A stretch of 64,000 bases of DNA from an uncultured cyanobacterium (GCA_963744145.1 CAVUSO010000001.1:4736001-4800000), one strand, 5' to 3'; numbered from the stretch's first letter, positions 106 to 63,800 are shown. Translations and numbers: made by a program. The notes: generated by a model not told the origin, from the letters alone.

Positions 106-137
106 ATATTTAACACCCTTTGCAATAAAAGACAATT

Positions 138-15639: not shown

Positions 15640-16338
15640 ATGGATAAACAGCTATACGAACTTATTACAGAAGTGTGTCAACACCCCTTGAAAAACCTGA
15701 AAAGACGAAAGACGATCAATCTGTTGCTGATCGAAATTCAAAGATTACCAGGATTACTGAAATCGTCCCATCCAGACTACTTAGACGCTTTAAATCGGAC
15801 ACTAGAGTGGGTAAATCAAAAACTTTGTCAAGACTTCAATCCTGATCAACCCTTGGTGCAAAAGCGTTTCCAACAATGGGTCAACAGTTACTTGTACTGG
15901 CGAATTAGAGATTTATACTCATCAAAAAAAACCGCTCTTAGCTTAGATCCACCCATAGGAAACGATCGAAGCGAAACTTCTCTAGTATATCTGCTATCAA
16001 AAACAGGTTTTGAACCTTGTCCTACACTTACTGGAATTGATGGTTATATTGAAAAATTAGAAAGAGAGCAACAGCAGGTGCTTGGGCTAAAATTAGAACA
16101 ACATATTTTGGCAGATCCAAATGGAAAATTGCAAAATTGTCATCCTAAAAGTTATCCAAATTGTAACGCTCAATTACTCAGCACTAGAGTTCTATTAAAA
16201 GACCCACCAGATAAATTTAGCGCGATCGCACTTGAGCTTTCGATCAACTACCAAACTCTCAAATCACATTGGGAAAGAAAATGTCGTCCTCTGTTGCAAG
16301 AAATTTTACTAGAATTAGGATATAAATCTGAGGTTTAA
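15640..16338 (+). CDS. Divergent sigma-70-like factor (cyanobacterial, DUF1822-associated)
   Basis: Region-2-like WVNSYLYWRIRDLY, an SLDPPIG motif and a C-terminal HTH (FSAIALELSINYQTLKSHWERKC); stop overlaps the next start. Confidence 0.65.
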   Translation: MDKQLYELITEVCQHPLKNLKRRKTINLLLIEIQRLPGLLKSSHPDYLDALNRTLEWVNQKLCQDFNPDQPLVQKRFQQWVNSYLYWRIRDLYSSKKTALSLDPPIGNDRSETSLVYLLSKTGFEPCPTLTGIDGYIEKLEREQQQVLGLKLEQHILADPNGKLQNCHPKSYPNCNAQLLSTRVLLKDPPDKFSAIALELSINYQTLKSHWERKCRPLLQEILLELGYKSEV

Positions 16339-17132
16339 TGATGAACAGCACAGAAATACCACTGATCACAGTTCCGTTAGGTCGTGAATTTCATGCTAGA
16401 GCAAAGGAATTGACTACCAAAGCTATGCAACTAGCAAATCCAACCAATAAACATCAAATAGGAAAGCGAGTTTATCTGAATACCTTAGCAGTTTATGCTG
16501 TTGATAGTTATCTGAGATGGCAAGCATACCAAGCAGATTTTAGTCAAAGTAATAGCAGCGATCCTATTTTATGTTCCCGCTGGGATGTAGCAGATTTAAT
16601 GATTCCTGGTATTGGTAAATTAGAATGTCGTCCGATTGGGGAAGGGGAAACTGTTTTGACTCTACCATCGGAAGTGACAGAAGACCGGATTGGGTATTTC
16701 CTAGTACAATTGGGGGAACATTTAGACTCAGCAACTCTATTAGGATTTGTGCCAGCTTTTGCTCCTTCTAACTTACCAAAACAGATCGCGATCGCTAACC
16801 TCCAGTCTCTTGATGCTTTTCTAGAGTATCTTGATCGATTGGAATTAGCCAACAATTTTTTCCAAGGAGATGATCCAGTTGCAGTCCGAGTCCGGGAGGT
16901 GTTGGAAAATAATCCCTTTTCAGAAATAATTGCACAATTAGAACGCATTTGGCGAAGTGAAACTGATCCTGAAAAACCTTATGCTATAAAAGATATCCTT
17001 GCTGGTAGTACAGCGGGTTTAAAGACCGATCGCGAATCTATAACTATTGATGATGAACTTGAAATTGAATTACTAGAACTAGCGGAGAGTTTAATAGAAA
17101 AATTAGCAGAAATTTGGGATTATCCTACATAA
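16338..17132 (+). CDS. DUF1822 family protein
   Basis: KRVYLNTLAVYAV..YL, ADLMIPGIGKLECRP, PSEVTEDRIGY..VQL and A.LLGF motifs. Confidence 0.85.
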   Translation: MMNSTEIPLITVPLGREFHARAKELTTKAMQLANPTNKHQIGKRVYLNTLAVYAVDSYLRWQAYQADFSQSNSSDPILCSRWDVADLMIPGIGKLECRPIGEGETVLTLPSEVTEDRIGYFLVQLGEHLDSATLLGFVPAFAPSNLPKQIAIANLQSLDAFLEYLDRLELANNFFQGDDPVAVRVREVLENNPFSEIIAQLERIWRSETDPEKPYAIKDILAGSTAGLKTDRESITIDDELEIELLELAESLIEKLAEIWDYPT

Positions 17133-17181
17133 AAATAGCTACTTAGACTGGATCAATATCAAGAAATATATCAAAATACCT

Positions 17182-20100
17182 ATGGATAAACAACGCCGAC
17201 AATTTTATCACGATTTTCTAAATAAAGCCGCACAATTTATGCAAGAAAATGGGATTAATCAACAAGAAGTTTACCCTTTTCTAAATGAAAACTTAGATAA
17301 ACTAGATGATAATTTACCCAGCATCCTACAAGAATGGTCGGAATTAATGTTGTTAATGATTGGGCTAAATAAAGCCCATCAAATGGCTACATGGATGAAT
17401 GTTTTTGGCGAGTTGATTTTTAATTTTCCTGGGGGTAATAGAGCAAATAACATAGAAATAACTATTGCTGCTTATAATATTGCTTCCCCATTCGTTAATC
17501 GCTATCTAGAACCAGGAATTTGGAGTGTCGTTCAAATTAATTTGGGAATTGCTTATCACAAACGAATTAAAGGCGATCGCTCCTTTAATATAGAACAAGC
17601 TATCCAATGCTATCAAGCAGTTTTACAAATCTGTGTTCAGCAAAATTTAACCACTGAGTATGGATATGCTCAAATAAATTTAGGAAATGCTTACTTTGAT
17701 AGAATCCAGGGAAATTGGGCAGAAAATATCGAGCAATGTATACAAGCTTACGAAGCAGCTTTACCAATTTATACCTACTCCACATTTCCCAAAGAATGGG
17801 CAGCTATACAATGTAATTTAGGGGTAGTTTATAAAGATAGAAGTATAGGCGATCGCGCTCAAAATTTGGAGATGGCTATTAGATCTAGTGAAGCAGCATT
17901 GACAGTTCATACCCGAAGTGCATTTCCTTTAGATTGGGCAAAAAATTACAATAATTTAGGCAATTCTTATAGAGAACGAATTGTTGGGGAAAAAGCAGAT
18001 AATTTAGAAAGAGCGATCGCTGCATTCCAAGCCACATTGCCAATTTACACCCAACAGAATTTCCCAGAAAAATGGGCAGATACTCAAAATAATTTAGGTA
18101 CGGTCTATTCGCAACGGCTCAAAGGTGAAAGAGCCGAAAATTTAGAGCAGTCTATTTCTTATTATCAAGCAGCTTTGACAGTTTTAACAAAAGCAGAGTT
18201 TCCCCAAAAATGGGCAGCAATTCAAAATAATTTAGGAGTAGCCTACAGTAGCAGAATTAAGGGCGAGATTATTGCCAATATAGAAGCAGCGATTAGTTGC
18301 ATTCAAGCATCATTGGACGTTTATACCCGTGAGGGGTTTCCCGAAGAATGGGCGCAATGTCAAAACACTTTGGGGAGTGCTTACTTCGATCGAATTAAGG
18401 GCGATCGCGCTGAAAACATAGAGCAAGCAATTAAATATTACAAAGCAGCTTTACAAATTCGTACCCGCGAAACATTACCCAGGGATTGGGCGATGTCTCA
18501 AAATAATTTGGGAGCAGCTTATTTAGCTCGAATTAAAGGCGATCGCGCTGAAAATATAGAGGAGGCTATTCAATCCTCTAAAACAGCTATGCTTGTTTAC
18601 ACTTATGAAACAATGCCTGAAAATTGGGCAAATGTTCAACTCAATTTGGGTAATGCCTATAGTAATCGAATTAATGGAGAAAAAGCTGAAAATTTAGAAC
18701 AGGCAATTCGCTACTATGAAGCGGCATTATGTGTATATAATCGCTCTGCTTTTCCTCAAAAATGGGCTGAAATTAAAAATAATTTGGCTATTGTATATGT
18801 TGATCGAATTGAAGGCGATCGAGCTGAAAATTTAGAACAAGCACTTGCATGTTGTCAAGCAGCATTACAAGTTCAGACTCGCGATACTTTACCTCAATAT
18901 TGGGCAAATACGCAAATCAATATGGGTAATACCTACTCTGATCGGATTTGTGGTGAAACTTCGGAAAACATAAAAACTGCAATTATTTGCTTTCAAGCAG
19001 CTTTACAAGTCTACACTAAAGAATCCTTTCCCTACGATTGGGCATTAATTATGAACAATTTGGGAAATGCTTATAGAAAGTTGAATAAAATTGATGAAGC
19101 GATCGCCTATTTTCGTTTAGCTCTCGAAATTAATACACCAATTGCGAACCCGAGCGAATGTCTCACAGCCGGAAAAAACTTGGGTGATACTGCCTTTAAC
19201 GCTCAACGTTGGGCAGCAGCGATTGAAGGTTACGATCTGGCTATCAAAGCTATAGAAACTAGCCGTTCTTGGACAAGTACTGAAGCGAGGAGACAAGAGA
19301 TTTTAAAATCAGGCATTTTGGTTTATGCTAACTTAGTGCAAGCTTGCATTAACTGCGGACAGTTCGAGCAGGCGATTGAGTATGCAGAGCGATCGCGATG
19401 CCAACGTTTAGTAGATTTGATGGCAAGTAATAACTTATCATATAATAGAGAAAATGACTCACAGGTTTATAAATATTTGCAAGAATATGAAAGACTACAA
19501 AAGCAAATTGATGCTTACTATAAGAACAATAACCGAGATTTTGGTAAAGTTCAAAATTTAACTGAAAATCGAGCTGGATTACAACCAGATGATAAAATTA
19601 TTCAGAATTGGGAAACTCAAAAACAGCAAATTTGGGAACAACTTCGGCGTTTAGATCCTGTTCTAGCGGGTCAAATTCAAGTCAGTCCTATATCTTTAGA
19701 TGCAATTCAAAAATTAATTGACTATCCAACCGCAATTTTGAGTTTTTATACGACACCTGATGGAATTCATATTTTTATAGTACGACAGACTAAAATTACT
19801 TACCACAGATGTAATAATTTAGATGGTGAAACATTTTCAAATTTAGTTCATGACAAATGGTTAATCATTTATTTAACTAAAAAAGAGGAATGGAAAAATA
19901 GTTTAGTATCAGTATTAAAAGAACTAGCTGAACTTCTAAATATAGAAAACTTAATTAGTCAGCATTTAAGTGGTGTTGAAGAACTGATTATTATACCCCA
20001 CTGGTTTCTGCACTCTCTTCCATTTGCAGCGTTACCTATTGACAATGATCAATATTTGGGAGACAAGTTTTTAATCCGTTATATTCCCAGTTGCCAAATT

Positions 20101-20949
20101 TTGGAATTTTGTCAGAAACGTTCTCAAGTAGACCAAACCCTAACCTATGGTACGATTGAAGATGCTACTGAAGATTTACCCTGTTCGAGTTTTGAAGGTG
20201 TTCAAATTGCTCAACTGCATAATATTCCCCGTTATTTACGCTTAAGTGGTCGCACAGAAGCTACTGTCAATAATTATCGTCAGTTAGTTAAACAAGTGCA
20301 AGTGATTATTAGCAGTCACCATGCCCAATCTCGCTTTGATAATCCTCTAGAATCTAAATTGATTTTATCAGATGGTAGTATTACTTTAGGACAACTATTA
20401 ACACCTGAATGGCGATTTCCCCATTTGGTGGATGTATTTCTTTCCTGTTGTGAAACAGGTTTAGGTTTGACTTTATTAACAGACGATGTTTTTACCCTTG
20501 CTAGTGGATTTTTGTGTGCAGGTGCTAGAAATGTAGTTAGTACACTTTGGGCAGTTGATGATTTAGCAACGGCGTTATTTTCGATTTTTTATCATCAATA
20601 TCGACACAGAGGCTCCTGTCGTCCAGCAGCTTTGCAACAAGCCCAGGAAGAACTACGCACCTTAAGCGGGGAAACCCTCGCTACTATTTACCAACCTCAA
20701 ATAAATTTGCTATTGAATGAGAAATTTCAGCAACTAGATCGGGCACGTAAAGAAGCAAAAACTCATCGCGATCGCTACCCGAAAGATACCCCAGAATATA
20801 TGCAATGGGATGAAGAATACAAACAGAATTTTAACGCTAGCGATCGCATTCGTCAGACCAAAAAAAGACTTCAAACTATCAGTCAAGAAGCATTTCCCTT
20901 CTCTCACCCCTTTTACTGGGCTGCGTTTATCTGTTCAGGTTTGCGCTAA
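17182..20949 (+). CDS. TPR-repeat + CHAT protease
   Basis: About 13-14 TPR-like units; SSHHA and FLSCCETG catalytic motifs; HPFYWAAF. Confidence 0.93.
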   Translation: MDKQRRQFYHDFLNKAAQFMQENGINQQEVYPFLNENLDKLDDNLPSILQEWSELMLLMIGLNKAHQMATWMNVFGELIFNFPGGNRANNIEITIAAYNIASPFVNRYLEPGIWSVVQINLGIAYHKRIKGDRSFNIEQAIQCYQAVLQICVQQNLTTEYGYAQINLGNAYFDRIQGNWAENIEQCIQAYEAALPIYTYSTFPKEWAAIQCNLGVVYKDRSIGDRAQNLEMAIRSSEAALTVHTRSAFPLDWAKNYNNLGNSYRERIVGEKADNLERAIAAFQATLPIYTQQNFPEKWADTQNNLGTVYSQRLKGERAENLEQSISYYQAALTVLTKAEFPQKWAAIQNNLGVAYSSRIKGEIIANIEAAISCIQASLDVYTREGFPEEWAQCQNTLGSAYFDRIKGDRAENIEQAIKYYKAALQIRTRETLPRDWAMSQNNLGAAYLARIKGDRAENIEEAIQSSKTAMLVYTYETMPENWANVQLNLGNAYSNRINGEKAENLEQAIRYYEAALCVYNRSAFPQKWAEIKNNLAIVYVDRIEGDRAENLEQALACCQAALQVQTRDTLPQYWANTQINMGNTYSDRICGETSENIKTAIICFQAALQVYTKESFPYDWALIMNNLGNAYRKLNKIDEAIAYFRLALEINTPIANPSECLTAGKNLGDTAFNAQRWAAAIEGYDLAIKAIETSRSWTSTEARRQEILKSGILVYANLVQACINCGQFEQAIEYAERSRCQRLVDLMASNNLSYNRENDSQVYKYLQEYERLQKQIDAYYKNNNRDFGKVQNLTENRAGLQPDDKIIQNWETQKQQIWEQLRRLDPVLAGQIQVSPISLDAIQKLIDYPTAILSFYTTPDGIHIFIVRQTKITYHRCNNLDGETFSNLVHDKWLIIYLTKKEEWKNSLVSVLKELAELLNIENLISQHLSGVEELIIIPHWFLHSLPFAALPIDNDQYLGDKFLIRYIPSCQILEFCQKRSQVDQTLTYGTIEDATEDLPCSSFEGVQIAQLHNIPRYLRLSGRTEATVNNYRQLVKQVQVIISSHHAQSRFDNPLESKLILSDGSITLGQLLTPEWRFPHLVDVFLSCCETGLGLTLLTDDVFTLASGFLCAGARNVVSTLWAVDDLATALFSIFYHQYRHRGSCRPAALQQAQEELRTLSGETLATIYQPQINLLLNEKFQQLDRARKEAKTHRDRYPKDTPEYMQWDEEYKQNFNASDRIRQTKKRLQTISQEAFPFSHPFYWAAFICSGLR

Positions 20950-20980
20950 CTCTTACAGCCTTAACTTGTCATCAATGAAT

Positions 20981-21245
20981 GTAGGGGCGTTCGCGAGAGC
21001 GTGCCGTAGGCATAGCATTCGGGCGATAATTAATCGCATAAAACCATTAATATTATATCCGAATGCTTCGCCCTTCTTCTTTGCCGAATCCATCAAAACA
21101 TTCTTCATTGAACCGGATTTATATATAGTTGATCTGTTGGTTTCATAGATGGTGAGGGCAAAGCATTTCGGTAATATTTTCTTCGTTTCAGTAATAATTT
21201 ATTCGCCGAAATGCTTTGCCCCTAAGGTTAACTGAACTGGATTGG
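20981..21245. repeat. Two adjacent REP-like palindromic elements
   Basis: GTAGGGGCG...AGCATTCGG...CCGAATGCTTCGCCC, then GGGCAAAGCATTTCGG...CCGAAATGCTTTGCCC. Confidence 0.75.
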
Positions 21246-21257
21246 CACTTAATATAA

Positions 21258-21332
21258 GTGGAAATTGAATTACTAGAACTAGCCGAGAGTTTACTAGAAA
21301 AATTAGCAAAAATTTGGGATGATAATATATAA
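21258..21332 (+). other. Duplicated 3' tail of the DUF1822 gene (open 24-codon mini-ORF from GTG)
   Basis: GAAATTGAATTACTAGAACTAGC.GAGAGTTTA.TAGAAAAATTAGCA.AAATTTGGGAT matches 17061-17120. Confidence 0.8.
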
Positions 21333-21385
21333 TAAAATTAGCTAGTCAATCTGGTGAAAAATTAGAAATATATCAAAGGTTAACT

Positions 21386-24300: not shown

Positions 24301-25582
24301 GGGTCAAATTCAAGTCACGCCTATACAGTTAGCTGCAATCCAACAATTAATTGACTATCCAACAGCAATTCTGGGTTTTTATACGACCATTAATGCAATT
24401 CATATCTTTATAGTACGACAGAAGAACATCACTTATCATAGTTGTAATAAGCTGGATGGTGAAACATTTTCAAAGTTGCTTCATGATAAATGGTTAACAC
24501 TTTATTTAACTAACAAAGAGGAATGGCAAAATAGTTTAATATCTGAATTAAAAGAACTAGCGGAACTTTTAGATTTAGAGAACTTAATTAATCAGCATCT
24601 AAGTGGTGTTGAAGAACTCATTATTATTCCCCACTTGTATCTGCATCTTCTTCCATTTGCAGCGTTACCAATTGAGAACAGTCAATATTTAGGAGACAAA
24701 TTTTTAATCCGCTACATTCCCAGTTGCCAAATTTTAGAATTTTGCCAGAAACGTTCTCAAGTAGACAAACCCCGAACCTATGGCACTATTGAAGATGCTA
24801 CTGAAGATTTACCCTGTTCGAGTTTTGAGGGTGTTCAAATTGCTCAACTGCATAATATTCCCCGTTATTTACGCTTAAATGGTCGCACGGAAGCTACTGT
24901 TAACAACTATCGTCAGTTACTTAAAGAAGTGCAAGTGATTATTAGCAGTCACCATGCCCAAGCCCGCTTTGATAATCCTCTGGAATCTAAGTTGATTTTA
25001 TCAGATGGTAGCATTACTTTAGGACAACTATTAACACCTGAATGGCGACTCCCCCATCTAGTAGATGTGTTTCTTTCCTGTTGCGAAACAGGTTTAGTTT
25101 TTACAGCAATAACAGACGATGTTTTTACCCTTGCTAGTGGATTTTTGTGTGCAGGTGCTAGAAGTGTAGTTAGTACACTTTGGGCAGTTGATGATTTAGC
25201 AACGGCGTTATTTTCGATTTTTTATCATCAATATCGACACAGAGGCTCCTGTCGTCCAGCAGCTTTGCAACAAGCGCAGGAAGAACTACGCACCTTAAGC
25301 GGGGAAACCCTCGCTACTATTTACCAACCTCAAATAAATTTGCTATTGAATGAAAAATTTCAGCAACTAGATCAGGCACGTAAAGAAGCAAAAACTCATC
25401 GCGATCGCTACTCCAAAGATACCCCAGAATATGTGCAATGGGATGAAGAATATAAACAGAATTTTAACGCTAGCGATCGCATCCGTCAGACCAAAAACGG
25501 ACTTCAGGTGATCAGTCAAGAAGCATTTCCCTTCTCTCACCCCTTCTACTGGGCAGCTTTTATCTGTTCTGGTTTGCGCTAA
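21386..25582 (+). CDS. TPR-repeat + CHAT protease (tandem paralog of 17182-20949)
   Basis: More TPR units than the upstream paralog; same SSHHA and FLSCCETG motifs; nearly identical C-terminus. Confidence 0.93.
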   Translation: MDEKRRRAYHNFLDQSIYYIITENGSNQQKFYQFLADNLDQLDDNLPNLLEEYSKALLSIVASDETIDIANCMGTFGDLIVNFNLGNKANNIEIGIAAYNIALPLLNCYLETENWVIIKHRLGIAYSNRIKGDRSSNIEQTIKCYQAVSEICTQTNLTSYWATNQLNLGSTYFARIEGNRAENMEQSLQCYQAALQFYTYSAFPQRWADTQSNLGFAYQKRIKGDSSLNLEMSISCSKAALDVYTQNAFPWDWARTHENLGDTYQKRLVGKKSDNLEQAISHYEAALRVFTKEEFPQRWAIIQISLAIVYLQPIRGEIVADIESAIRYNQASLEVHNREIFPEFWALIQSNLGVAYIDRIKGDRAQNLELAISYINAALEVYTRSRFPLNWAKSHQILGDIYQKRVVGKKSENLETTIAALESALQVYNKQDFPEEWARTQNYLGTAYNERIEGEIAENVEKAISYHEAALTVFTKAEFPQQWATTQDHLGTAYGNRIRGDVATNLETQISYYQASLQVDAYESFPRHWALTMNNLSTAYHRRIKGDRADNIEQAIQYVKKSLQIYTREILPKDWARSQQNLGVYYFDRIKGDRTENIEQAIQYYQSAMLVYASEAIPQDWGNIQFNLGSAYGVRIAGQESENLEQAIRYYESALLVHTRSEFPQKWAEIKNNLARVYFQRIEGDRAENLEQAIECTQAALQVQTRDAFPHVWADKQSTLGQAYYLRICGEKSENIKAAIACYQAALQVYTRKSFPRGWMSIMNGLGIAYRKLEKIDEAIAYFRLALEITTPIADPIECLRYGRNLGETAFSDQRWAAAIEGYDLAIKAIETSRSWTNVEARRQEILNSGFMVYADLVQACINCEQFDQAIEYAERSRCQSLVDLMASNDLSYNSELDPQVYKYLQEYENIQRQIDNYHQTNNSGNSRELSIIETLTGNRAGLKPNDQTIKNWETQKQQIWEQLRRLDPVLAGQIQVTPIQLAAIQQLIDYPTAILGFYTTINAIHIFIVRQKNITYHSCNKLDGETFSKLLHDKWLTLYLTNKEEWQNSLISELKELAELLDLENLINQHLSGVEELIIIPHLYLHLLPFAALPIENSQYLGDKFLIRYIPSCQILEFCQKRSQVDKPRTYGTIEDATEDLPCSSFEGVQIAQLHNIPRYLRLNGRTEATVNNYRQLLKEVQVIISSHHAQARFDNPLESKLILSDGSITLGQLLTPEWRLPHLVDVFLSCCETGLVFTAITDDVFTLASGFLCAGARSVVSTLWAVDDLATALFSIFYHQYRHRGSCRPAALQQAQEELRTLSGETLATIYQPQINLLLNEKFQQLDQARKEAKTHRDRYSKDTPEYVQWDEEYKQNFNASDRIRQTKNGLQVISQEAFPFSHPFYWAAFICSGLR

Positions 25583-25701
25583 CTCAAGGCATTTGTCCAG
25601 GTATGTTTGCGCTTGGGCGCTAGATTCGGAGGGCGCTGAAGCGCTACTAGGTGCCTTTTTTGGTGCCAGTCGGGTAAGTCTGATTTATTTTTCCAAAAAT
25701 T

Positions 25702-25734
25702 TGCATAATTCTGCGACTACACCCTGGTTAATAG
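25702..25734 (+). promoter_or_regulatory. Bipartite motif TGCATAATT-N12-CCTGGTTAATAG, copy 1
   Basis: Identical boxes and spacing at 28543 and 29040; ends 65 nt before ORF 25800. Confidence 0.7.
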
Positions 25735-25799
25735 AAGAACGCAGTTGGCCAACTTGCTTCTCCAAAAATTTCAGATTTACCTTAACGGAGAAATGAGCC

Positions 25800-26003
25800 A
25801 TGATATCTACAATTTTATCGTCTTTCCTCATGTTTGGCATAATTGTGCCTTCACATCAGGGAAGCAATATTACGCATGAGGAACAAATTTCAGCATCTGA
25901 TCAAGTCCTATCCCATCACCCGCAATTAGATATTTTTCAGCATGAAACAAAAAAAGATGGGAATGGAGATGACGATCCCATTGTTCCCCCTAATCGACGC
26001 TAA
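25800..26003 (+). CDS. Small putatively exported peptide (67 aa, C-terminus DDDPIVPPNRR)
   Basis: GGAG RBS at 25787-90, hydrophobic N-terminus ISTILSSFLMFGIIVP, and the conserved motif upstream. Confidence 0.6.
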   Translation: MISTILSSFLMFGIIVPSHQGSNITHEEQISASDQVLSHHPQLDIFQHETKKDGNGDDDPIVPPNRR

Positions 26004-26038
26004 TTCAGGGCTGTTTCAATCTCCCTTCTAACATAGCA

Positions 26039-26141
26039 GACCTAACCCCCCAGCCCCCTTCCCTGCAAGAGAAGGGGGAGCAATTAATATGATTAATTCT
26101 TGCTCCCCTCTCCTCCCAGGAGAGGCGTTGGGGGAGAGGTC
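26039..26141. repeat. C/G-tract palindromic repeat (same family as 4961-5040)
   Basis: ACCTAACCCCCCAGCCCCCTTCCC...GCTCCCCTCTCCT...AGGAGAGG.GTTGGGGGAGAGGT. Confidence 0.7.
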
Positions 26142-26147
26142 AAACAA

Positions 26148-28151
26148 TTAATTATTGATCGAACTCAAACGTTGACGTGCGTTAATTTTCCAAATATCTA
26201 ATTCTGGCAGTCTCCAATTTATTCCTTGAGTTTTATGATCGCTTTGGTTATATTTGAGAAAATTTTCATAATAAACTAATGCTTCTTGGATATTTCCTTG
26301 AGCCTCCTTCACTTGTGCCAAAAGATAATGTGTTGGTGAATAAACCTGATTTAACTCCAGGGATTTTAAAAGCTGTAACTCAGCTTCATTATAGCGATTT
26401 TCAAGAAAATAAGCCCACCCCAAATTTTTGGACAAAGCTGCTAAAACTAGATCATCTTTGACTTTTCCTAAAATCGGCAATATCAGATTAATTGATGTCT
26501 CTAGATTTCCAGAGATAATTTCCAACCGAGCTAAATTACTAATAGCAGCATAAGCCCCTCGATTATTAAATTTGGCAGCAATTTGATAGTGATTTATTGC
26601 CTTAGCTAAATCTTGCAACTGTTCATAAGTAGCTCCTAGGTTATAGTGAGCTGGAGCTAAGTCAGGATTAAATCTAATCGCTTGGCTTAAGTAATATTTA
26701 GCAGTTTGAAACTCTCCAGCTAAATAATTTTTATGACCAACTTGATTAAAATATTTAGCAAGCAATTGATGAGTTATGTATTGTTTTATTTCTGGATTTA
26801 GAGTAAAAATATCTTCTACTTCTGGAGAATCTTTTACTAAAAACTCTTCCCTAATCAGTGACTCTAAAGCAGGTTGCAAATCAGACATTTCTCCCGCAAC
26901 AGATAGATTTGATTTTAAATCATTGCAACTAACTGGTTTATTTTTTAAGGCTAAATAACAGAGGATGTAATTCTCTATATCTGATAAATCAGCACTGTTT
27001 TTTTGCAAAAAATCTCGCAGGATATTCTGGATAATTAAAGTAGCTTGCTGGATAAATTGGGTGAAATTTCCTGAAAATATGTGATCAAAGTTAGTGGTGA
27101 CTATTTTTAAAAGTAAAGGATTATTACCATAGAGTTGGAGTAACTCAGAAAATAGACTATTTTCCGGACTACTCGAGAACCTTTTGGCTGAATAGATAAT
27201 TTTTTCGACGCTTTGCTCATCTAAGCCATTTAATGGTAATACTTTAATCTTGGAGTTTTCTGTGGTGATAAAAATAAGTTCTGGGTGGAGATACCAACTG
27301 ATAAGTAATAAACAACTTTGATGGGGTGATGTTACTATTTGGTGAAATAGCTCTGCATAATTTTCGTATCCTTGTTGATAGCAATTACTACTTTGAAGAA
27401 TGCTATCAACTTGATCTAATATTACCAAACACCGTGCCGAACTTAGGTATTTGAGTAATAAACCGATTCTGGTTTCCGTATTCTCTAGTAAGTCGGTTTC
27501 TGGTTGGGGAGATAGGAATTTAAGTAAATCGTTTAAAATATCTGACATCAATGGGCGTTCTTTGAGCGATCGCCAAATGCAATAATCAAACTCACCTTGA
27601 ATTTCTTGTACTGTCCTTACAGCCAAGGTGGTTTTACCAATTCCTCCTATTCCTAATAGTGCTACCAATCGGTAAGCATCCTTAACTATATATTGTTTTA
27701 AAACGGTAAATTCAGGATTACGACCATAAAAAATAGGGACATCAGGTGCATCACCCCAATCTATCCGGGGGTTGATTTTCGCGATCGCTGTTTCTGGGTA
27801 ACTACCTTTACTAATAGATGGGGTAACATCCTCAATAGTAGACTGTACTGGATCAGGTTGAGCAGAAATCCCATCACTAGCTGTACCATTAGTAAAATTA
27901 GTAACCTGTCGTTGGTATTGAGAAAGGAGGATTTGCTGTAATTTAGCCAATTTTCCTGGTCCTCGTCCCCTAATCTCAAATTTCTTGTAAACCTCACCTA
28001 GTCTTTTCTGAAGCGCTTCTTTACTGATATCCAATTCTTTAGCGATCGAGTGCATGGGTTGACCTTTGAGGGCTCTGGAAAGAGCTTCAAATTCGCTGTC
28101 GGAAACACGAAAATTTCTAGCTAGATTTTTTAAAAAGTTTTGGGGAATCAT
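26148..28151 (-). CDS. HTH + NB-ARC (STAND) ATPase + TPR protein
   Basis: N-terminal LuxR-like HTH (SIAKELDISKEALQKRLGEVYKKF), DWGDAPDVPIFYGR, Walker A GIGGIGKTT, WRSL, Walker B LVILDQ, a GNNPLLL GxP-like motif and C-terminal TPRs (HYNLGATYE, KNLGWAY). Confidence 0.88.
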   Translation of the reverse strand: MIPQNFLKNLARNFRVSDSEFEALSRALKGQPMHSIAKELDISKEALQKRLGEVYKKFEIRGRGPGKLAKLQQILLSQYQRQVTNFTNGTASDGISAQPDPVQSTIEDVTPSISKGSYPETAIAKINPRIDWGDAPDVPIFYGRNPEFTVLKQYIVKDAYRLVALLGIGGIGKTTLAVRTVQEIQGEFDYCIWRSLKERPLMSDILNDLLKFLSPQPETDLLENTETRIGLLLKYLSSARCLVILDQVDSILQSSNCYQQGYENYAELFHQIVTSPHQSCLLLISWYLHPELIFITTENSKIKVLPLNGLDEQSVEKIIYSAKRFSSSPENSLFSELLQLYGNNPLLLKIVTTNFDHIFSGNFTQFIQQATLIIQNILRDFLQKNSADLSDIENYILCYLALKNKPVSCNDLKSNLSVAGEMSDLQPALESLIREEFLVKDSPEVEDIFTLNPEIKQYITHQLLAKYFNQVGHKNYLAGEFQTAKYYLSQAIRFNPDLAPAHYNLGATYEQLQDLAKAINHYQIAAKFNNRGAYAAISNLARLEIISGNLETSINLILPILGKVKDDLVLAALSKNLGWAYFLENRYNEAELQLLKSLELNQVYSPTHYLLAQVKEAQGNIQEALVYYENFLKYNQSDHKTQGINWRLPELDIWKINARQRLSSINN

Positions 28152-28441
28152 TGTAATAAGCTACTACATAAGTAATATAAACAGCTATTTTACCTAAAAT
28201 TTCTCGCGATCGAGGAGTACGCTCTTCTCCCAGAGAAATTCCTCAGTTATTTTCAATTGTAATGGTTTTTTCTCATTTTAATCAGTATGACAGAAGTATT
28301 TATCTTGATTAACCATAGATTTTTTGCTAGAGTAAAACTCTTGTCCATAAATAAATACCACCATATTCGAGCCGAAGGAGATAAATAACCAATCCCTTTG
28401 GGTGATTAACTCATTTTTAATGAGATTTTTTTCTCAGATAG

Positions 28442-28470
28442 TTGACATTTGCGGAAAAAGCAGTTAGGCT
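28442..28470 (+). promoter_or_regulatory. Sigma70-type promoter TTGACA-N17-TAGGCT
   Basis: Consensus -35, 17-nt spacer and a plausible -10 in the divergent intergenic region. Confidence 0.55.
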
Positions 28471-28542
28471 TATCTCAGTTAGAGCAGAAGCAGTGGTCGG
28501 ACTAGTGTCCTCTAGCAGACCAGAAACTTTCTTGTGTGTGTC

Positions 28543-28575
28543 TGCATAATTTTTTGGCGTTGCCCTGGTTAATAG
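28543..28575 (+). promoter_or_regulatory. Bipartite motif TGCATAATT-N12-CCTGGTTAATAG, copy 2
   Basis: Upstream of ORF 28671. Confidence 0.7.
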
Positions 28576-28670
28576 TTGGAAGTTTAGATTAAGGAAGATG
28601 TACAGAAATATGCTGTTCCTAAACAGGAAGTTAGAAAAATGCGATCGCGAGGTTCACACAGGAGTAAACT

Positions 28671-29021
28671 TTGATTAAGTTTGTTGGACAAGTCGAATTA
28701 CGCAACCGTCGTTGCGTTTATTATCAGGATAATTCTTACAGAGTAGAGCAAGTCAATCCAAATAGAGAACAAGTAACTTACTCTTATGATATTCCTGACA
28801 CAGCGGTTGAGTATCTATACAATGAATTAAAAGGTTGTAAAGTTACAAAAACAGATGCTGCTAGGGTTCTTCAACGAGTTGCGATCAGCTTGGAACTTCC
28901 ATTTACTCACGGCTGGAAACTTGACTATTACGCTCAGGAAGCATTAATAGTTCTGGTAGCATTAGGTAAAGCACGTTTAAGTCAAGAATACCGAAGTTAC
29001 TTTTACACCATTGTCTCCTGA
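28671..29021 (+). CDS. Hypothetical protein (116 aa)
   Basis: AGGAG RBS before a TTG start; no family recognised. Confidence 0.65.
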   Translation: MIKFVGQVELRNRRCVYYQDNSYRVEQVNPNREQVTYSYDIPDTAVEYLYNELKGCKVTKTDAARVLQRVAISLELPFTHGWKLDYYAQEALIVLVALGKARLSQEYRSYFYTIVS

Positions 29022-29039
29022 TTTGGTTTTCCAAAAACT

Positions 29040-29072
29040 TGCATAATTTTTTGACCTGATCCTGGTTAATAG
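29040..29072 (+). promoter_or_regulatory. Bipartite motif TGCATAATT-N12-CCTGGTTAATAG, copy 3
   Basis: Upstream of the HTH-GTPase gene. Confidence 0.7.
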
Positions 29073-29131
29073 TTAGAAGTTCGGAGTTGAAAATTTAAAA
29101 CTCAGACATCCCGTCAGTCAACACATAAATA

Positions 29132-31318
29132 TTGAGGTATAAAATGTTTAATATCCCAGCTACTTTTGGTGCAGTTATAACAGAGCTTAGAGAATACAGA
29201 GGTTTAAGTAAATCCCAATTGGCAGAAAAATTTAATATTGATGAGGATATAATTGACCAGATTGAGTCTGGAGAATTACCAAGTATTTCCGACGCTGAAG
29301 ATATTTTAAATAAAATAGGGGTTGAAGATTTAAACAGTCTTGAAAAATTTACCAATCAAAATTATGAAATTTTACCAAGACCACCTTTTTATCATCCTGA
29401 TCGAGATGCTCTATACTTAGCAGAATTAACTCTTCGCAAAATTAGAGATTTTCGTCATCAGCAAAAAGAACCACCTAGACTACTTGACCAACGAGCAGAA
29501 ATGCTTGAAAAGAGGCTTAAAGAAACACTTTCCGATCATCTTTATCCATTGAACTATTCTATCGCCTATATTGGACAAATTGGTGTTGGAAAAACTACTG
29601 CTATCTGCCAACAATACGGCTTAATATCTGAGGAAACAGATAAATTTTTATTAGAAACTGGAGGAGGAGGTACGACTATTTGTGAAGTTAGAATTAAGCA
29701 AGGAAATCAATATTCTATTTATGTGGAATCTATAGAACAGAAAGAAATATATGAACTATCAAAAAGTCTTTGTGCAAGTTTTAGTCAAAATTTACCACAA
29801 AACCAGTCTCAAGGTGTTTCTAAAGAAATAGAAAGAGCTTTACGTAATATGGCTAAAGTTATAAAACCCAAACCTCCAAAATCTCCAAAATCTCCAAAAT
29901 CTTCAAAATCAACTTCTCAGCAACTACATAACAATAATAATATAACTCAAAAACCAATAGAAGATCCATTAAAACAGCTTGCAGAAAGCTCAGGAAATTT
30001 TGAGAAATTATGTGGAGAATTTATAGAAAAATTATCTCTATGGAAAAGAACTCAAACAGAAATATTTTATGATGAATCAGATAAAATATCAGGTTGGAAA
30101 TGGTTACAAACGAACTTTAAAAATATTAACAATGGACGAGATGAACGTTTTTCATTACCTAAATTAATAACTATCACTGTACCAAACGATGCACTGAATA
30201 TATCCACTATTTACAAATTTGAGATAATTGACACTAAAGGAATTGATCAAACTGTTATTCGTCCCGATCTTCAAAATTGTATTAACGATAGTAAAACGCT
30301 TATAATTCTATGTTCGCCTTTTAATACTGCCCCTTGTCCATTAGCAGTTCAAAAAATTATTAGTGAGTTGAATGAAACTGGACGCTCAAATGCTTTGAAA
30401 GAAAGAGTTAATATTTTGGTATTGCCAAGAACAGGTGAAGCGATCAATATGAGAAGTGATGATGGTGAGCAGACGGAGGATGATGATGATGGTTACAGAA
30501 TGAAATCTGAACAGATAGAACTGGCACTTAGACGTATTAATACAAATCATATACCTCCTATACATTTTTTTAATTATAGTTCAGACGACCCCGATGATTT
30601 TAATGAATTCATTATTGATAATTTATTAAAATTTCGACAAAAAAAGATTGATATTATTAATGAAACGGATAGTGATATAGATAGTTTAATACAAAATCAA
30701 GAAGAAGAGTATTATAGAGCATCTTGGGAACAGGTAACAAGAAGAATAGAAAATTTCATAGAACGACATTCTGAATTACCTCATGATAATTGGAGAATCG
30801 AACAAGATTTACTTTCTGCAATTGTAGAAACTCACCCTAGAACACTATGGGCATCAATGCGACGCAGAGGTGAAGAATACTTATACGTTTATGACCTGCT
30901 TAATAATAGTGCAAGAAAAGAAGCTGTTAAATGCACTAACAATATATTAAATCGTTTAGATGAGCTAGTGCAGGATATGCTTGGAGATAACGAATTGCAA
31001 CCAGTACATCAATTCCTTAGAGGTTTAAATGTTTTTATTGATCTTGGTCGTAATAATTTTTTAAACGCAGTTGAAATAATCACATCTCAAGTTTTTCGTG
31101 ATGAGCTGTATAATGATGATTGTATTTGGGATGAATGTTGTGGGCTATGGGGACAAGGAAGAGGATTTCGAGATAGAATTAAAGAAAAATTTTATTATTG
31201 GTTTACAAATTATGATCATATATATCTTTATGATAATTTAAAGTCTGCTATCAATAACAGTTGGAAAAACAAATTTTTAAATGAGCTTCAGAAAAAAGTA
31301 GAACTTTTCCAAGAGTAA
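29132..31318 (+). CDS. XRE-HTH fused to a dynamin-like/TRAFAC GTPase (start probably ATG 29144)
   Basis: LREYRGLSKSQLAE...IDQIESG (XRE HTH), G1 GQIGVGKTT, G2-like GGGGTT, G3 DTKG and a long helical C-terminus. Confidence 0.75.
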   Translation: MRYKMFNIPATFGAVITELREYRGLSKSQLAEKFNIDEDIIDQIESGELPSISDAEDILNKIGVEDLNSLEKFTNQNYEILPRPPFYHPDRDALYLAELTLRKIRDFRHQQKEPPRLLDQRAEMLEKRLKETLSDHLYPLNYSIAYIGQIGVGKTTAICQQYGLISEETDKFLLETGGGGTTICEVRIKQGNQYSIYVESIEQKEIYELSKSLCASFSQNLPQNQSQGVSKEIERALRNMAKVIKPKPPKSPKSPKSSKSTSQQLHNNNNITQKPIEDPLKQLAESSGNFEKLCGEFIEKLSLWKRTQTEIFYDESDKISGWKWLQTNFKNINNGRDERFSLPKLITITVPNDALNISTIYKFEIIDTKGIDQTVIRPDLQNCINDSKTLIILCSPFNTAPCPLAVQKIISELNETGRSNALKERVNILVLPRTGEAINMRSDDGEQTEDDDDGYRMKSEQIELALRRINTNHIPPIHFFNYSSDDPDDFNEFIIDNLLKFRQKKIDIINETDSDIDSLIQNQEEEYYRASWEQVTRRIENFIERHSELPHDNWRIEQDLLSAIVETHPRTLWASMRRRGEEYLYVYDLLNNSARKEAVKCTNNILNRLDELVQDMLGDNELQPVHQFLRGLNVFIDLGRNNFLNAVEIITSQVFRDELYNDDCIWDECCGLWGQGRGFRDRIKEKFYYWFTNYDHIYLYDNLKSAINNSWKNKFLNELQKKVELFQE

Positions 31319-31519: not shown

Positions 31520-31807
31520 TTGACACTCCCACCTCTAAAGGGGATGGAATTCTTAAGAGATTTCGCTCTTAGTATCCCTATTGCTATGCTCATGTATGAT
31601 TTTCATGCCGCTCTCGGTCAATACATTGTATACCGAAATCTCATTCAACTTACCGCGACCGAATATATGTTATATTTGGCAATTGATGATGTCGTATACA
31701 AAGAGTTCTTTCAACGTAAGGCTGTACAAGTAGTTACTCATCAGAATCAGCTTCTTTTAATAGTAGTTGAAATGGAAAAAGAGGAAATTAGGCAATGGAT
31801 AAATTAG
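31520..31807 (+). pseudogene. xisH: XisH C-terminal fragment, preceded by a possible IS200/IS605-type end hairpin
   Basis: DFHAALGQYIVYR...LYLAI motif. The N-terminus is replaced by CACTCCCACCTCTAAAGGGGATGGAATTC. Confidence 0.65.
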
Positions 31808-32097: not shown

Positions 32098-32502
32098 TTA
32101 TAACTCTACCCAATTCTCTAAATTTAAACCCTCTATTCTCGCTAAATCACTATCATTAGAAACCAAAATTAAATCTTTAACCATCGCTGTAGCAGCAATT
32201 AAAATATCTTCGATTTGTATTGGTAAACCTCTTAATCTCAGATTAGCATGAATTTCGGCGGCTTTTTCTAATATTGCCAAATCATCTAAGAGAATAATAG
32301 GATATCTTTGACAAAAATCTTCAAATCTTGCCCGTTGTTTAGGAGCCTCAATAGCTAAAAATCCTCTCCTAATTTCAAAGTAAGTTATACAGCTAATGAA
32401 AATATTTTCTTCTTTAGCATCAACAGCTAAAATTTTTTGCAAAATTTGAAGATTTTGCTTAATTGCCAAAGACACAATATTAGGATCTAATAAATAATTC
32501 AT
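32098..32502 (-). CDS. vapC: VapC/PIN-domain toxin
   Basis: YLLDPN, ITYFEI, EDILIAATA and LVSNDSD motifs. Confidence 0.88.
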   Translation of the reverse strand: MNYLLDPNIVSLAIKQNLQILQKILAVDAKEENIFISCITYFEIRRGFLAIEAPKQRARFEDFCQRYPIILLDDLAILEKAAEIHANLRLRGLPIQIEDILIAATAMVKDLILVSNDSDLARIEGLNLENWVEL

Positions 32503-32508
32503 AATTAT

Positions 32509-62393: not shown

Positions 62394-63800
<1,407 letters not shown>

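Follow-up and report, generated by a model that had tools for sequence, protein, structure and literature searches.

A soluble sigma-like/DUF1822/TPR-CHAT locus as a variant of a widespread cyanobacterial cassette

In a 64-kb stretch of DNA from an uncultured cyanobacterium (hereafter the window), we identified a locus that is a soluble variant of a widespread cyanobacterial cassette, composed of a sigma-like factor, a DUF1822 protein and a caspase-like protease. Gene content, catalytic residues, linkage across genomes, a change of the DUF1822 C-terminus in step with protease type and the conservation of an upstream motif were demonstrated here, and they frame a mechanism of which every binding, cleavage and transcription step is inferred. 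ORF calling in the window recovered all ORFs at the coordinates listed here and further below, which bears out the gene layout proposed in a first-pass annotation of this DNA. The protease genes and their immediate neighbours are as follows:

138-4952, + strand: third TPR-CHAT paralogue, 1604 aa (CHAT, E 1.6e-40)
15640-16338, + strand: sigma-like factor, 232 aa (AF2 fold, Foldseek, Atlas neighbours, weak profile matches)
16338-17132, + strand: short-form DUF1822 protein, 264 aa (PF08852)
17182-20949, + strand: TPR-CHAT protease 1, 1255 aa (Pfam CHAT, PF12770, E 1.9e-36 at residues 912-1253; TPR families)
21014-21127, no strand assigned: short dispersed, MITE-like repeat between the two TPR-CHAT genes (83% identical to window positions 1-112)
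21262-21333, + strand: 3'-terminal remnant of a second DUF1822 gene, translated as ...EIELLELAESLLEKLAKIWDDNI and a stop (similarity and translation)
21386-25582, + strand: TPR-CHAT protease 2, 1398 aa, tandem paralogue of protease 1 (Pfam CHAT, E 3.1e-35)

The start codon of the DUF1822 gene overlaps the stop codon of the sigma-like gene in the sequence TAATG at 16336-16340, and a gap of 49 nt separates the DUF1822 gene from the first TPR-CHAT gene, both exactly as first annotated. Among related loci, DUF1822 was the gene immediately 3' of the sigma-like one in 78 of 80, the two genes overlapped or were at most 10 nt apart in 69 of the 73 loci with both ORFs called, and the next large gene encoded a CHAT protein in 49 of 53 loci by Pfam scan, with tblastn giving a CHAT match in 8 of 10 further loci outside that scan. 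The linkage of the three genes, for which the earlier annotation had proposed a neighbourhood survey, is thus kept across genomes. RefSeq annotation also contains the triad on plasmid C of Trichormus variabilis ATCC 29413 and on pAQ6 of PCC 7002, and fusions were found among the family representatives, one joining the sigma-like and DUF1822 proteins (P0150) and three joining the sigma-like and CHAT proteins (P0168, P0092 and P0089). In most relatives the CHAT protease is anchored in the membrane and bears a sensor on the outside (solute-binding or CHASE2 domains); the clade of the window has soluble TPR-CHAT proteases in its place. Protease type clustered on the sigma-like tree, a quick tree whose related rows have labels in common by descent, with 7 changes compared to a mean of 27.2 after shuffling (a count so low was reached in 0 of 200 shuffles).

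Fold, language-model neighbours and weak profile matches make the 232-aa protein a probable, divergent member of the sigma-70 family; every one of these lines of sequence and fold evidence is sub-significant by itself. Its AF2 model (pLDDT 83.4) comprised two helical domains, a four-helix N-terminal domain (residues 1-95) and a C-terminal domain with an HTH (residues 133-225), joined by a disordered linker at about residues 97-130. The best Foldseek matches of this model in the PDB were ECF sigma factors (1or7_A, E 0.024, probability 0.98), with no match at E ≤ 0.001. A profile of the wider family matched SigA/RpoD at E 0.0037-0.023, the segment WINGYLxYRIxDL aligning to SigA region 2 in profile A2 (E 0.0037), and a narrow profile gave no PDB match. 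The Atlas neighbours carry the name sigma-70 family, as do RefSeq plasmid relatives at 26-29% identity. The protein itself matched no Pfam or NCBIfam model, Sigma70_r2 included; Sigma70_r4_2 was matched by only 2 of 131 family representatives (best E 7.7e-7), while other representatives matched assorted HTH models. The label "sigma-like" in the annotation thus draws on the two-domain helical fold and on remote similarity, no domain family confirming it for the protein itself; none of the computable outcomes that the annotation named as refuting was observed.

The DUF1822 protein matched PF08852 with an E value of 1.3e-32 and 113.7 bits (cutoff 25), although the match covers only positions 9-169 of the 370 in the profile. 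Its AF2 model (pLDDT 91.3, pTM 0.87) paired an alpha/beta N-terminal domain with a helical bundle; it gave no significant PDB fold match and matched no known anti-sigma fold. In alignment A3, the N-terminal domain was kept everywhere and the C-terminal domain tracked the protease type, being helical with TPR-CHAT and beta-rich with N-terminal-CHAT receptors, so that in the clade of the window the C-terminal half is replaced by a clade-specific helical domain.

Protease 1 consists of about 900 aa of TPR repeats followed by a C-terminal CHAT domain, with SSHHA at residue 1047, SCCETG at residue 1088 and no TM-like segment. The His/Cys motifs recorded at first annotation were confirmed, since VIISSHHA and SCCETG are present in both tandem proteins (SCCETG of protease 2 at residue 1231); their His and Cys we take to be the catalytic pair of the CHAT family. 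The two proteases were 63.8% identical overall, with 50-60% identity in the N-terminal TPR part and 93-94% in the CHAT part. The DUF1822 remnant between them was recognized from the similarity of window positions 21261-21490 to 17061-17283 (76% identical over 232 nt). A further partial copy of the MITE-like repeat lies at 63946-64000 on the other strand. The third TPR-CHAT protein was 81% identical to the one encoded 3' of the sigma-like and DUF1822 genes in locus L031; any sigma-like/DUF1822 pair of its own would fall before the start of the window.

Downstream of the proteases lie a small-protein gene, an HTH-STAND-TPR gene and two further genes, together with three copies of a bipartite motif, TGCATAATT-N12-CCTGGTTAATAG:

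25702-25734, + strand: motif copy 1, 65 nt before the start codon of the small-protein gene
25743-25754, no strand assigned: perfect 12-nt palindrome AGTTGGCCAACT, 8 nt after motif copy 1
25800-26003, + strand: small protein, 67 aa, with acidic proline-rich C-terminus DDPIVPPN (orthologue conservation)
26148-28151, − strand: HTH-NB-ARC STAND NTPase-TPR protein, 667 aa, convergent with the peptide gene (Pfam)
28543-28575, + strand: motif copy 2, 95 nt before the ORF at 28671
28671-29021, + strand: 116-aa protein of no assigned family, TTG start as called (ORF call)
29040-29072, + strand: motif copy 3, before the XRE-NTPase gene
29132-31318, + strand: XRE-HTH and P-loop NTPase protein, 728 aa as called (HTH_31, E 1.3e-5)

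The shared upstream motif claimed for these genes was substantiated: the window contains exactly three exact copies (+ strand, at 25702, 28543 and 29040), none arose by chance in 100 shuffles, and the motif recurs in 10 related loci. By eye, it resolves into two conserved blocks around a variable 12-nt spacer, with the cores GCATAA and GGTTAA 17 nt apart; a sigma-70 consensus scan did not flag it. It was not found upstream of the sigma-like gene, in contrast to the autoregulation of many ECF sigma factors, a point against the reading favored below. When the regions before the sigma-like genes of the window and 14 loci, together 15 clade members, were compared, no 9-mer was common to more than six. 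The palindrome has one exact match in the window, is absent at motif copies 2 and 3, and was conserved without mismatch and at an identical offset in all 10 loci with the peptide-gene promoter.

Orthologues of the small protein were found in 9 of the 10 motif-bearing loci by a PIVPP search and in the tenth (L008) by tblastn. Its description as an exported peptide holds in part: residues 2-16 of the window copy are hydrophobic, but this leader is missing in 3 of 10 orthologues, all Microcoleus-type. The 116-aa protein had no Pfam match, and tblastn matched it in L001 (81%) and L004 (73%). The XRE-NTPase, for which an alternative ATG start at 29144 would give 724 aa, shows the motifs GQIGVGKT (P-loop) and DTKG by eye in translation. 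Its 176 homologues are named XRE-family or HTH regulators and include proteins of Caulobacter, Brevundimonas and Nitrosomonas; since the family also occurs in Proteobacteria, the gene is probably cargo. The "dynamin-like GTPase" reading of this protein found no support, as neither Pfam, NCBIfam nor the homologue names gave a dynamin or GTPase family match. The convergent HTH-NB-ARC-TPR gene is as annotated, with NB-ARC (E 1.5e-11), NACHT (E 1.6e-5) and TPR_2 (E 1.4e-14) matches in Pfam, TPR repeats at about residues 460-640 and a weak GerE/LuxR-like HTH (GerE, E 0.0056); its copies were 70-72% identical in L001, L004, L005, L007 and L008 and 45% identical in L012, L013 and L016.

We tentatively favor a reading, with somewhat less than an even chance of being right as a whole, in which the genes form a cytosolic signaling cassette whose CHAT cleavage frees the sigma-like factor for the motif-bearing genes. 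The sigma-like factor and the DUF1822 protein would be made together from their overlapping genes, the conserved N-terminal domain of DUF1822 would hold the factor inactive, and its clade-specific C-terminal domain would dock on the protease or be cut by it. The diverged TPR arrays of the two soluble proteases may respond to different cytosolic ligands, one for each array, and the near-identical CHAT domains would act on one common substrate. Cleavage would then release the sigma-like factor, which may direct RNA polymerase to the motif copies that precede the DDPIVPPN gene, the 116-aa ORF and the XRE-NTPase gene. Through the palindrome before the peptide gene, the HTH-STAND-TPR protein could have a second, separate input.

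The motif genes could instead form a separate peptide/receptor circuit, an unlikely but substantial alternative, in which the HTH-STAND-TPR protein recognizes the motif, the palindrome or both and switches on the peptide gene together with its neighbours, the TPR repeats take the DDPIVPPN peptide as their ligand, much as in RRNPP-type quorum or arbitrium systems, and the sigma-like factor, DUF1822 and TPR-CHAT proteins are mere neighbours or have targets elsewhere. Motif, palindrome, peptide gene and STAND gene always occurred together in the loci examined, and the motif was absent from L023 and L031, where the sigma-like, DUF1822 and TPR-CHAT genes are present and the STAND and peptide genes are missing; the motif could thus equally be read by the STAND HTH. 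A perfect palindrome suits a dimeric HTH protein, and the receptor, with its HTH and TPR domains, adjoins a small gene that is conserved at the C-terminal end of its product. It also carries an extra NB-ARC module, which RRNPP receptors are not known to contain, and no RRNPP Pfam family was reported for the STAND protein. The circuit sits less well with the motif itself, which, read from its copies, has promoter-like spacing and no dyad symmetry, with the five-gene arrangement, which stays intact down to 55% sigma-like identity although the flanking genes differ, and with the three Microcoleus-type peptides, whose missing leader argues against a secreted signal.

Two further readings concern the cassette itself. 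Kaur et al. (PMC8195603) proposed, in the part of their account cited here, activation by autopeptidase activity, and in a reading along those lines, which we consider doubtful, DUF1822 would be an adaptor or effector rather than an anti-sigma, possibly of restriction-endonuclease-like fold, and CHAT would process itself or the sigma-like factor, whose disordered linker (residues 97-130) could be within protease reach. The best fold matches of the DUF1822 model were the restriction endonucleases DpnI and HincII, its invariant residues D86 and E96 lie in adjacent strands, and an Atlas "restriction endonuclease family" cluster scored 0.86; however, these fold matches are non-significant (E 0.11, probability 0.33), the Atlas score is below 0.9, and by eye in A3 the position where a catalytic Lys would sit holds Arg, or Cys in 4 of the 34 sequences. 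A regulator of sigma that is also a substrate of the protease would, by contrast, be expected to show both the close overlap with the sigma-like gene and the C-terminus swap matched to protease type. An anti-phage abortive infection system, with TPR-CHAT and STAND proteins as detectors of phage proteins and with toxic effectors encoded by the motif genes, seems improbable. Defence islands commonly hold TPR-CHAT, STAND NTPase and HTH-NTPase genes (see also Kaur et al. 2021), the tandem TPR sensors diverge, TA-like PIN genes and XisH/XisI lie close by, the genes 3' of the STAND gene differ between loci (an AAA_21 ATPase in L001, for example), and relatives occur on 14 plasmid records. On the other hand, PADLOC-DB 2.0.0 has no model for the sigma-like or DUF1822 protein and gave no match for these or the peptide, with weak generic matches for the others (TPR, BovA at 9.2e-5, HTH), and Pfam and NCBIfam revealed no recognizable toxin domain in the three motif genes. 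Most relatives, moreover, are receptor-proteases in which a membrane segment is followed by a solute-binding or CHASE2 sensor, an arrangement that senses the environment rather than phage and points to general signal transduction; the candidate annotation as a defence island found no support.

The idea of a sigma/DUF1822/caspase linkage is not new: it is in print as a prediction by Kaur, Iyer, Burroughs and Aravind (2021, eLife, PMC8195603), where, in the part cited here, EACC2-caspase proteins neighbour "ECF sigma factor" and DUF1822 genes. Our literature searches found no experiment on the sigma-like/DUF1822/CHAT linkage. As described in that part of the article, their system shares with the window the linked sigma-like, DUF1822 and caspase/CHAT families and the logic of stimulus, peptidase and transcription, and most relatives have its architecture, with CHAT near the N-terminus and a variable C-terminal sensor. 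The window proteases, in contrast, belong to a strongly diverged CHAT lineage in reversed domain order, with the TPR sensor N-terminal, CHAT C-terminal and no membrane segment. The constant EACC2 module before the caspase was not found in the three window TPR-CHATs, in which an HMM built from residues 1-120 of 25 receptor-type proteases, serving as a stand-in for that module, scored 6.1 bits at best. The DUF1822 C-terminal domain is replaced in the window; DUF1822 is a TPR protein according to the same part of Kaur et al., whereas the model here is alpha/beta with a helical bundle, and the peptide, STAND and motif layer is absent from the cited portion of their main text.

Sigma release by proteolysis has been shown experimentally for Craspase, where, in the portion of PMC10028731 cited here, the type III-E Cas7-11-Csx29 (TPR-CHAT) complex cuts Csx30, which binds and inhibits CASP-sigma; there, as in the window, the gene of a TPR-CHAT protease lies next to those of a small sigma factor and of a protein that belongs to no known family. 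The NCBIfam Csx29 model matched the CHAT part only of the window proteases (69.7 and 76.5 bits, cutoff 300), and the 64-kb window contains no CRISPR-like repeat-spacer array and no cas genes (Pfam search on 40 window proteins of the 43 called ORFs of at least 100 aa); unlike in Craspase, the trigger cannot be guide-RNA pairing. The CalpL-CalpT-CalpS system, with a type III CRISPR SAVED-Lon protease, an anti-sigma and an ECF-like sigma, follows a similar three-part logic in outline, but uses Lon rather than CHAT and a cyclic oligoadenylate trigger and, by that outline description, has none of the three families in common. HetF of Anabaena, a cyanobacterial CHAT protease, likewise has a specific protein substrate in degrading PatU3, a pair in which sigma factor and DUF1822 are not involved in the part of PMC9457339 cited here. 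In the outline of RseA/DegS/RseP-sigmaE, sigma and regulator are co-transcribed as in the cassette, and the receptor-type relatives would resemble it in coupling an outside sensor through the membrane to cytoplasmic sigma release; the cassette differs in its protease class and in a regulator without recognizable anti-sigma domain, and the window version is all cytosolic. Collectively, the three-gene cassette probably serves, in the role we propose for it, to turn a sensed signal into new transcription by protein cutting.

ORF calling placed the genes of the island as the first-pass annotation had described them, including the TAATG at 16336-16340 in which the sigma-like and DUF1822 genes overlap and the 49-nt gap between the DUF1822 gene and the first TPR-CHAT gene.

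Genes of the island and the third TPR-CHAT gene (position in the window, strand, description)
138-4952, +, TPR-CHAT protease 3, 1604 aa; its counterpart downstream of the sigma-like/DUF1822 pair of locus L031 is 81% identical
15640-16338, +, sigma-like ORF, 232 aa, stop TAA within TAATG
16338-17132, +, DUF1822 ORF, 264 aa, start in the same TAATG; Pfam DUF1822, E 1.3e-32
17182-20949, +, TPR-CHAT protease 1, 1255 aa; C-terminal CHAT, Pfam E 1.9e-36
21386-25582, +, TPR-CHAT protease 2, 1398 aa; C-terminal CHAT, Pfam E 3.1e-35
25800-26003, +, small ORF (peptide gene), 67 aa
26148-28151, -, STAND gene, 667 aa, convergent with the peptide gene; NB-ARC E 1.5e-11, TPR repeats, weak GerE-type HTH E 0.0056
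28671-29021, +, 116-aa ORF
29132-31318, +, XRE-NTPase ORF, 728 aa; XRE HTH (Pfam)

The Pfam DUF1822 match was confined to the first half of the 370-position model, at positions 9-169. In proteases 1 and 2, TPR-type repeats filled approximately 900-1050 residues before the CHAT domain, and the claimed His/Cys motifs were present in both (SSHHA, within VIISSHHA, and SCCETG). The translation of the XRE-NTPase gene reads a P-loop GQIGVGKT followed by DTKG; neither Pfam, NCBIfam and PDB sequence searches nor the names of its homologues supported the earlier description as a dynamin-like GTPase. No Rfam family was detected within 13000-34000. The intergenic segment at which the peptide and STAND genes converge (26004-26147) contains, by eye, G+C-rich inverted repeats and is likely a two-way terminator. 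The region is flanked on both sides by DUF4058 genes (14577-15368 and 35164-35916, both on the - strand), homologues of which occur close to the cassette in 7 further loci, and the G+C content is 0.32-0.36 at 26-34 kb against ~0.38-0.41 around it. Directly after the island lie a truncated XisH fragment, a PIN-domain gene and an XisH/XisI pair (31520-31807, 32098-32868, 33213-33856); the PIN-domain gene has a 119-aa upstream partner and is TA-like. Elsewhere in the window, nine near-perfect 48-nt tandem repeats (60882-61324) lie within a DUF5331 gene, itself flanked by a NifH/frxC-family gene (59254-60117) and a nitrogenase component 1-type oxidoreductase gene (62394-63800).

The grouping of sigma-like, DUF1822 and CHAT genes, on which the first-pass annotation had built its reading, was kept across genomes. 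Scanning a single genome per species yielded 135 relatives of the 232-aa protein, from which 80 loci (L-numbers) were kept, and all those with an organism name were cyanobacteria. A DUF1822 homologue lay immediately 3' of the sigma-like gene in 78 of the 80 loci (exceptions L039 and L040), with a gap of ≤10 nt or an overlap in 69 of the 73 for which both ORFs were called. A large + strand ORF was found within 4.5 kb downstream in 63 loci, and the Pfam scan covered 53 of these (leaving out L005-L008, L011 and L013-L017): CHAT was detected in 47, and L020 and L060 were added through an N-terminal part or an adjacent ORF, giving 49/53, with no CHAT found by Pfam in the scanned downstream ORF of L026, L050, L051 and L073. 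Among the ten loci outside the scan, tblastn located a window-type CHAT in 8, and the contig end cuts L011 and L015. Twelve of the 17 loci lacking a large downstream ORF have <4.1 kb of downstream sequence; the other five (L032, L038, L040, L041, L062) have 5.5-10 kb, and the protease is seemingly absent. RefSeq names the whole triad (sigma-70 family, DUF1822 family, CHAT domain-containing) on plasmid C of Trichormus variabilis ATCC 29413 and on pAQ6 of PCC 7002, the latter with a DUF6717 gene between the DUF1822 and CHAT genes, and a window-type cassette is present on plasmid pn3 of Nostoc sp. UHCC 0926. The sigma-like family comprises 787 cluster representatives at E ≤ 0.001, and fusions occur among 131 family representatives, joining the sigma-like part to DUF1822 (P0150) or to CHAT (P0168, P0092, P0089), some of which may be frameshift or assembly artefacts.

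The 232-aa protein itself had no match in Pfam, NCBIfam or PADLOC, all 68 of its close homologues were named hypothetical, and the narrow profile of the close family returned 0 matches against PDB sequences. Its AF2 model (pLDDT 83.4) comprised two helical domains (1-95 and 133-225) separated by a disordered linker, and its best Foldseek matches in the PDB, none reaching E 0.001, were ECF and other sigma factors: sigmaE 1or7_A (E 0.024, prob 0.98), AlgU, SigL, SigI, sigma32 and sigmaS. Two of the first eleven rows, RPSH-RPOB and RPSD-RPOB, we take to be sigmaH and sigmaD from their UniProt mnemonics. Among its ESM-Atlas neighbours, one cyanobacterial cluster bore the name "Sigma-70 family RNA polymerase sigma factor" (0.97), and other clusters carried Sigma70_r2 (0.94). 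A wider profile (131 representatives) matched SigA/RpoD PDB chains marginally (E 0.0037-0.023), and in the alignment WINGYLxYRIxDL fell on sigma region 2 and SLDxPIG on the SLETPIGDE stretch; Sigma70_r4_2 was matched by just 2 of the 131. Relatives on plasmids (tblastn; 26-29% identity, 83-98% of the length, E 8e-12 to 3e-6) are mostly named "sigma-70 family RNA polymerase sigma factor" in RefSeq. These four independent weak lines (fold, Atlas neighbours, wider profile and plasmid relatives) agree. The protein is very probably a member of the sigma-70 family, and we infer that it works as a sigma factor. The label "sigma-like" rests on this fold and remote evidence and has no Pfam or NCBIfam match behind it. 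The C-terminal domain of the family also carries a near-invariant set, C167, C175, C177, H210 and C215 (Ala at 177 in the window's own protein), which may form a metal or redox site.

The N-terminal 170 residues of DUF1822 were kept throughout the alignment, with N48, Y58, D86, G93, E96 and C97 among the invariant positions; the C-terminal part is helical and ~90 aa long in the TPR-CHAT clade versus beta-rich and ~150 aa long elsewhere. The AF2 model (pLDDT 91.3, pTM 0.87) showed two long helices, a five-to-six-stranded sheet and then a helical bundle, with lower confidence at ~221-240, and contradicts the wording of Kaur et al. 2021 (PMC8195603), in which DUF1822 is a TPR protein. Foldseek returned no significant PDB match for this model; the best were the restriction enzymes DpnI and HincII (E 0.11, prob 0.33), and the Atlas leads, all below 0.9, included one named restriction endonuclease. 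D86 and E96-C97-R98 lie on neighbouring strands of the model, as in PD-(D/E)xK enzymes, but position 98, Arg in most sequences, is Cys in 4 of the 34 aligned (by eye). As a lead only, the modelled core could be PD-(D/E)xK-like and probably inactive.

The proteases that accompany these two genes differ widely in architecture.

Architectures of the 47 CHAT proteins from the Pfam scan of downstream ORFs
CHAT near the N-terminus, then PBP_like_2: 26 loci
CHAT, then CHASE2: 7 loci
TPR array, then C-terminal CHAT (window type): 7 loci
CHAT, then Peripla_BP_6: 3 loci
CHAT, then NACHT: 1 locus
CHAT, then LprI: 1 locus
CHAT only: 2 loci

In L020 and L060, CHAT is followed by nSTAND1-WD40. A hydrophobic segment separated the CHAT domain from the sensor in all 14 receptor-type proteins examined (CHAT near the N-terminus, sensor C-terminal); none was found in proteases 1 and 3 of the window, and protease 2 had two weak hydrophobic stretches only, within the CHAT core. 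From this sequence pattern, most of the family look like membrane receptor-proteases sensing the outside, and the window's clade looks soluble. HMMs built on the first 120 or 400 residues of the receptor type gave no meaningful match to the proteases of the window (6.1 bits at most), so the window's protease is a separate CHAT lineage and not a rearranged receptor copy. Mapped onto a quickly built maximum-likelihood tree of the sigma-like protein, protease type clustered strongly: it changed 7 times, whereas shuffled labels gave 27.2 changes on average and in none of 200 shuffles so few. The window fell in a clade of 19 rows (SH-aLRT 98), and all loci of this clade whose protease is known are of the TPR-CHAT type; because related rows share labels by descent, this clustering indicates inheritance of the cassette and not co-evolution as such. 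Several neighbourhoods carry additional genes. The CHASE2-type loci L021, L022 and L025 (at ~12.3-18.2 kb in each locus) encode a sigma-like protein, DUF1822, CHAT-CHASE2, DUF928 and a second TPR-CHAT of another lineage, an order that suggests a two-protease relay. PBP_like_2-type cassettes of L064 and other Nostoc loci (e.g. L064 8008-9609, L078 13861-14757) have divergent PspA/IM30 and PBP_like_2 genes upstream and, in some loci, an SPFH/Band 7 gene downstream, neighbours that hint at a membrane-stress or phosphate-type signal. The Microcoleus sub-clade (L012-L017) has an extra reverse-strand ORF of 562-598 aa between the protease and peptide genes (e.g. L012 16614-18410), with a borderline SWIM zinc-finger match (E 8.5e-4).

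Proteases 1 and 2 are 63.8% identical overall. Identity increases along the protein, the N-terminal TPR part standing at 50-60% and the CHAT domain at 93-94%, and the final 1140 nt of the two genes are 92% identical. The sequence 5' of the protease 2 gene (21261-21490) is 76% identical to 17061-17283, and 21262-21333 still encodes the C-terminal helix of DUF1822; this remnant indicates that the duplicated unit included DUF1822, of which the second copy decayed. A dispersed, MITE-like repeat of ~115 nt (copies at 1-112, 21014-21127 and 63946-64000, 83-88% identical) has its second copy between the two protease genes. The 137 nt upstream of protease 3 hold this repeat and no DUF1822 end, and any sigma-like and DUF1822 partners of that protease would lie before the window start. 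An ORF at 20810-21148 (112 aa), which has no Pfam family and overlaps the repeat, was not counted as a gene.

The upstream motif that the first-pass annotation had ascribed to the peptide gene and two further genes proved to be bipartite, TGCATAATT-N12-CCTGGTTAATAG, with exactly three copies in the 64 kb (25702, 28543 and 29040), all on the + strand and each ahead of one of three + strand genes; none occurred in 100 shuffles. The motif recurs in 10 of the 80 loci (L001, L004, L005, L007, L008, L012-L014, L016 and L017); in these its two blocks are conserved and the 12-nt spacer varies, and L004 has a relaxed copy at its peptide gene. When the sequences preceding the sigma-like gene were compared in 15 members of the TPR-CHAT clade, no 9-mer was common to more than six, so the conservation of the motif is not background similarity, and there is no evidence of sigma-like autoregulation. 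By our own count 17 nt separate the motif cores GCATAA and GGTTAA, a promoter-like spacing; a sigma-70 consensus scan did not flag the motif, the promoter and terminator scans being at chance level and uninformative. Eight nucleotides past the peptide-gene copy lies a perfect palindrome, AGTTGGCCAACT (25743-25754), exact and at the same offset in 10/10 loci and missing at the other two window copies. The small protein is conserved only in its C-terminal part (EIF/A..K...DDPIVPPN). Its description as an exported peptide suits the hydrophobic N-terminus in the window, L001 and L012-L017, but not the 38-aa forms of L004, L005 and L007, from which that segment is missing. An ORF at 25593-25796 ("sm1") was rejected as a gene: it spans the first motif copy and the palindrome, and its tblastn matches in other loci fall on conserved motif/palindrome DNA in every locus with comparable positions. 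Genes past the STAND gene differ by locus (an AAA_21 ATPase in L001, unknown proteins of 300 and 150 aa in L004), the XRE-NTPase family of the window is common in Proteobacteria too, and these genes look like exchangeable cargo.

Collectively, the linkage, the matched domain swap, the identity gradient between sensor and catalytic parts and the Csx29-Csx30-CASP-sigma system, an experimental precedent for protease-to-sigma release (PMC10028731), suggest a protease-gated sigma switch, to which we tentatively give slightly less than an even chance. Ligand sensing would trigger CHAT cleavage, cleavage would release the sigma-like factor, and the factor would drive transcription from the motif, each step being one that we infer. 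All ten motif-bearing loci belong to the TPR-CHAT clade, and the STAND gene is also present wherever the contig reaches far enough; L023 and L031 have a TPR-CHAT protease with neither STAND gene nor motif. The main rival, which we consider unlikely, is that the HTH-STAND-TPR and DDPIVPPN proteins form a circuit of their own that owns the motif. A mixed arrangement also fits and suits the presence of two distinct DNA elements: the bipartite motif would be recognised by the sigma-like factor and the palindrome by the STAND HTH. A defence role for the island is possible but unsupported, as PADLOC has no model for the cassette core and the sensors of relatives indicate environmental signals.

A more specific form of the sigma switch, somewhat unlikely as a whole, would make DUF1822 a new modular anti-sigma class within a cytosolic, CRISPR-independent caspase-to-sigma cascade with STAND-TPR feedback; no cas gene was found among the 40 proteins scanned in the 64-kb window, and no CRISPR-like array. 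The constant N-terminal domain of DUF1822 would clamp the divergent sigma-70-family factor, its swappable C-terminal domain would serve as a docking or cleavage handle for the cassette's own CHAT protease, and the duplicated TPR sensors would converge on one substrate, with an output including the DDPIVPPN protein, which would feed back on the STAND-TPR regulator via the separate palindromic operator.

The sigma/DUF1822/caspase neighbourhood and a peptidase-to-sigma model were already stated by Kaur et al. 2021 (PMC8195603), which, together with a genome comparison table, is where DUF1822 appeared in the literature searched. A search on CHAT, sigma and anti-sigma in cyanobacteria found no experimental study of the cassette. 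Three features appear to be new: the soluble TPR-CHAT form of the cassette, in which the C-terminus of DUF1822 is swapped; the tandem duplication of the sensor, accompanied by a DUF1822 remnant; and the conserved set of promoter-like motif, palindrome and DDPIVPPN protein. Caspase-like proteases are abundant in filamentous cyanobacteria. In a non-systematic literature search, those with a demonstrated substrate were only the cyanobacterial HetF-PatU3 (PMC9457339) and the CRISPR-linked Csx29 (PMC10028731). The cassette is a large family with many different sensor domains, present in its receptor-type form in the laboratory strains PCC 7002 and Trichormus variabilis ATCC 29413, and the window's variant offers unusually testable parts in its soluble proteases, three-copy candidate promoter and conserved small protein. 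Should cutting of DUF1822 by the protease set the sigma-like factor free, the family would provide a general, CRISPR-independent route from ligand to transcription via a caspase-like cut, and DUF1822 would be assigned a function.
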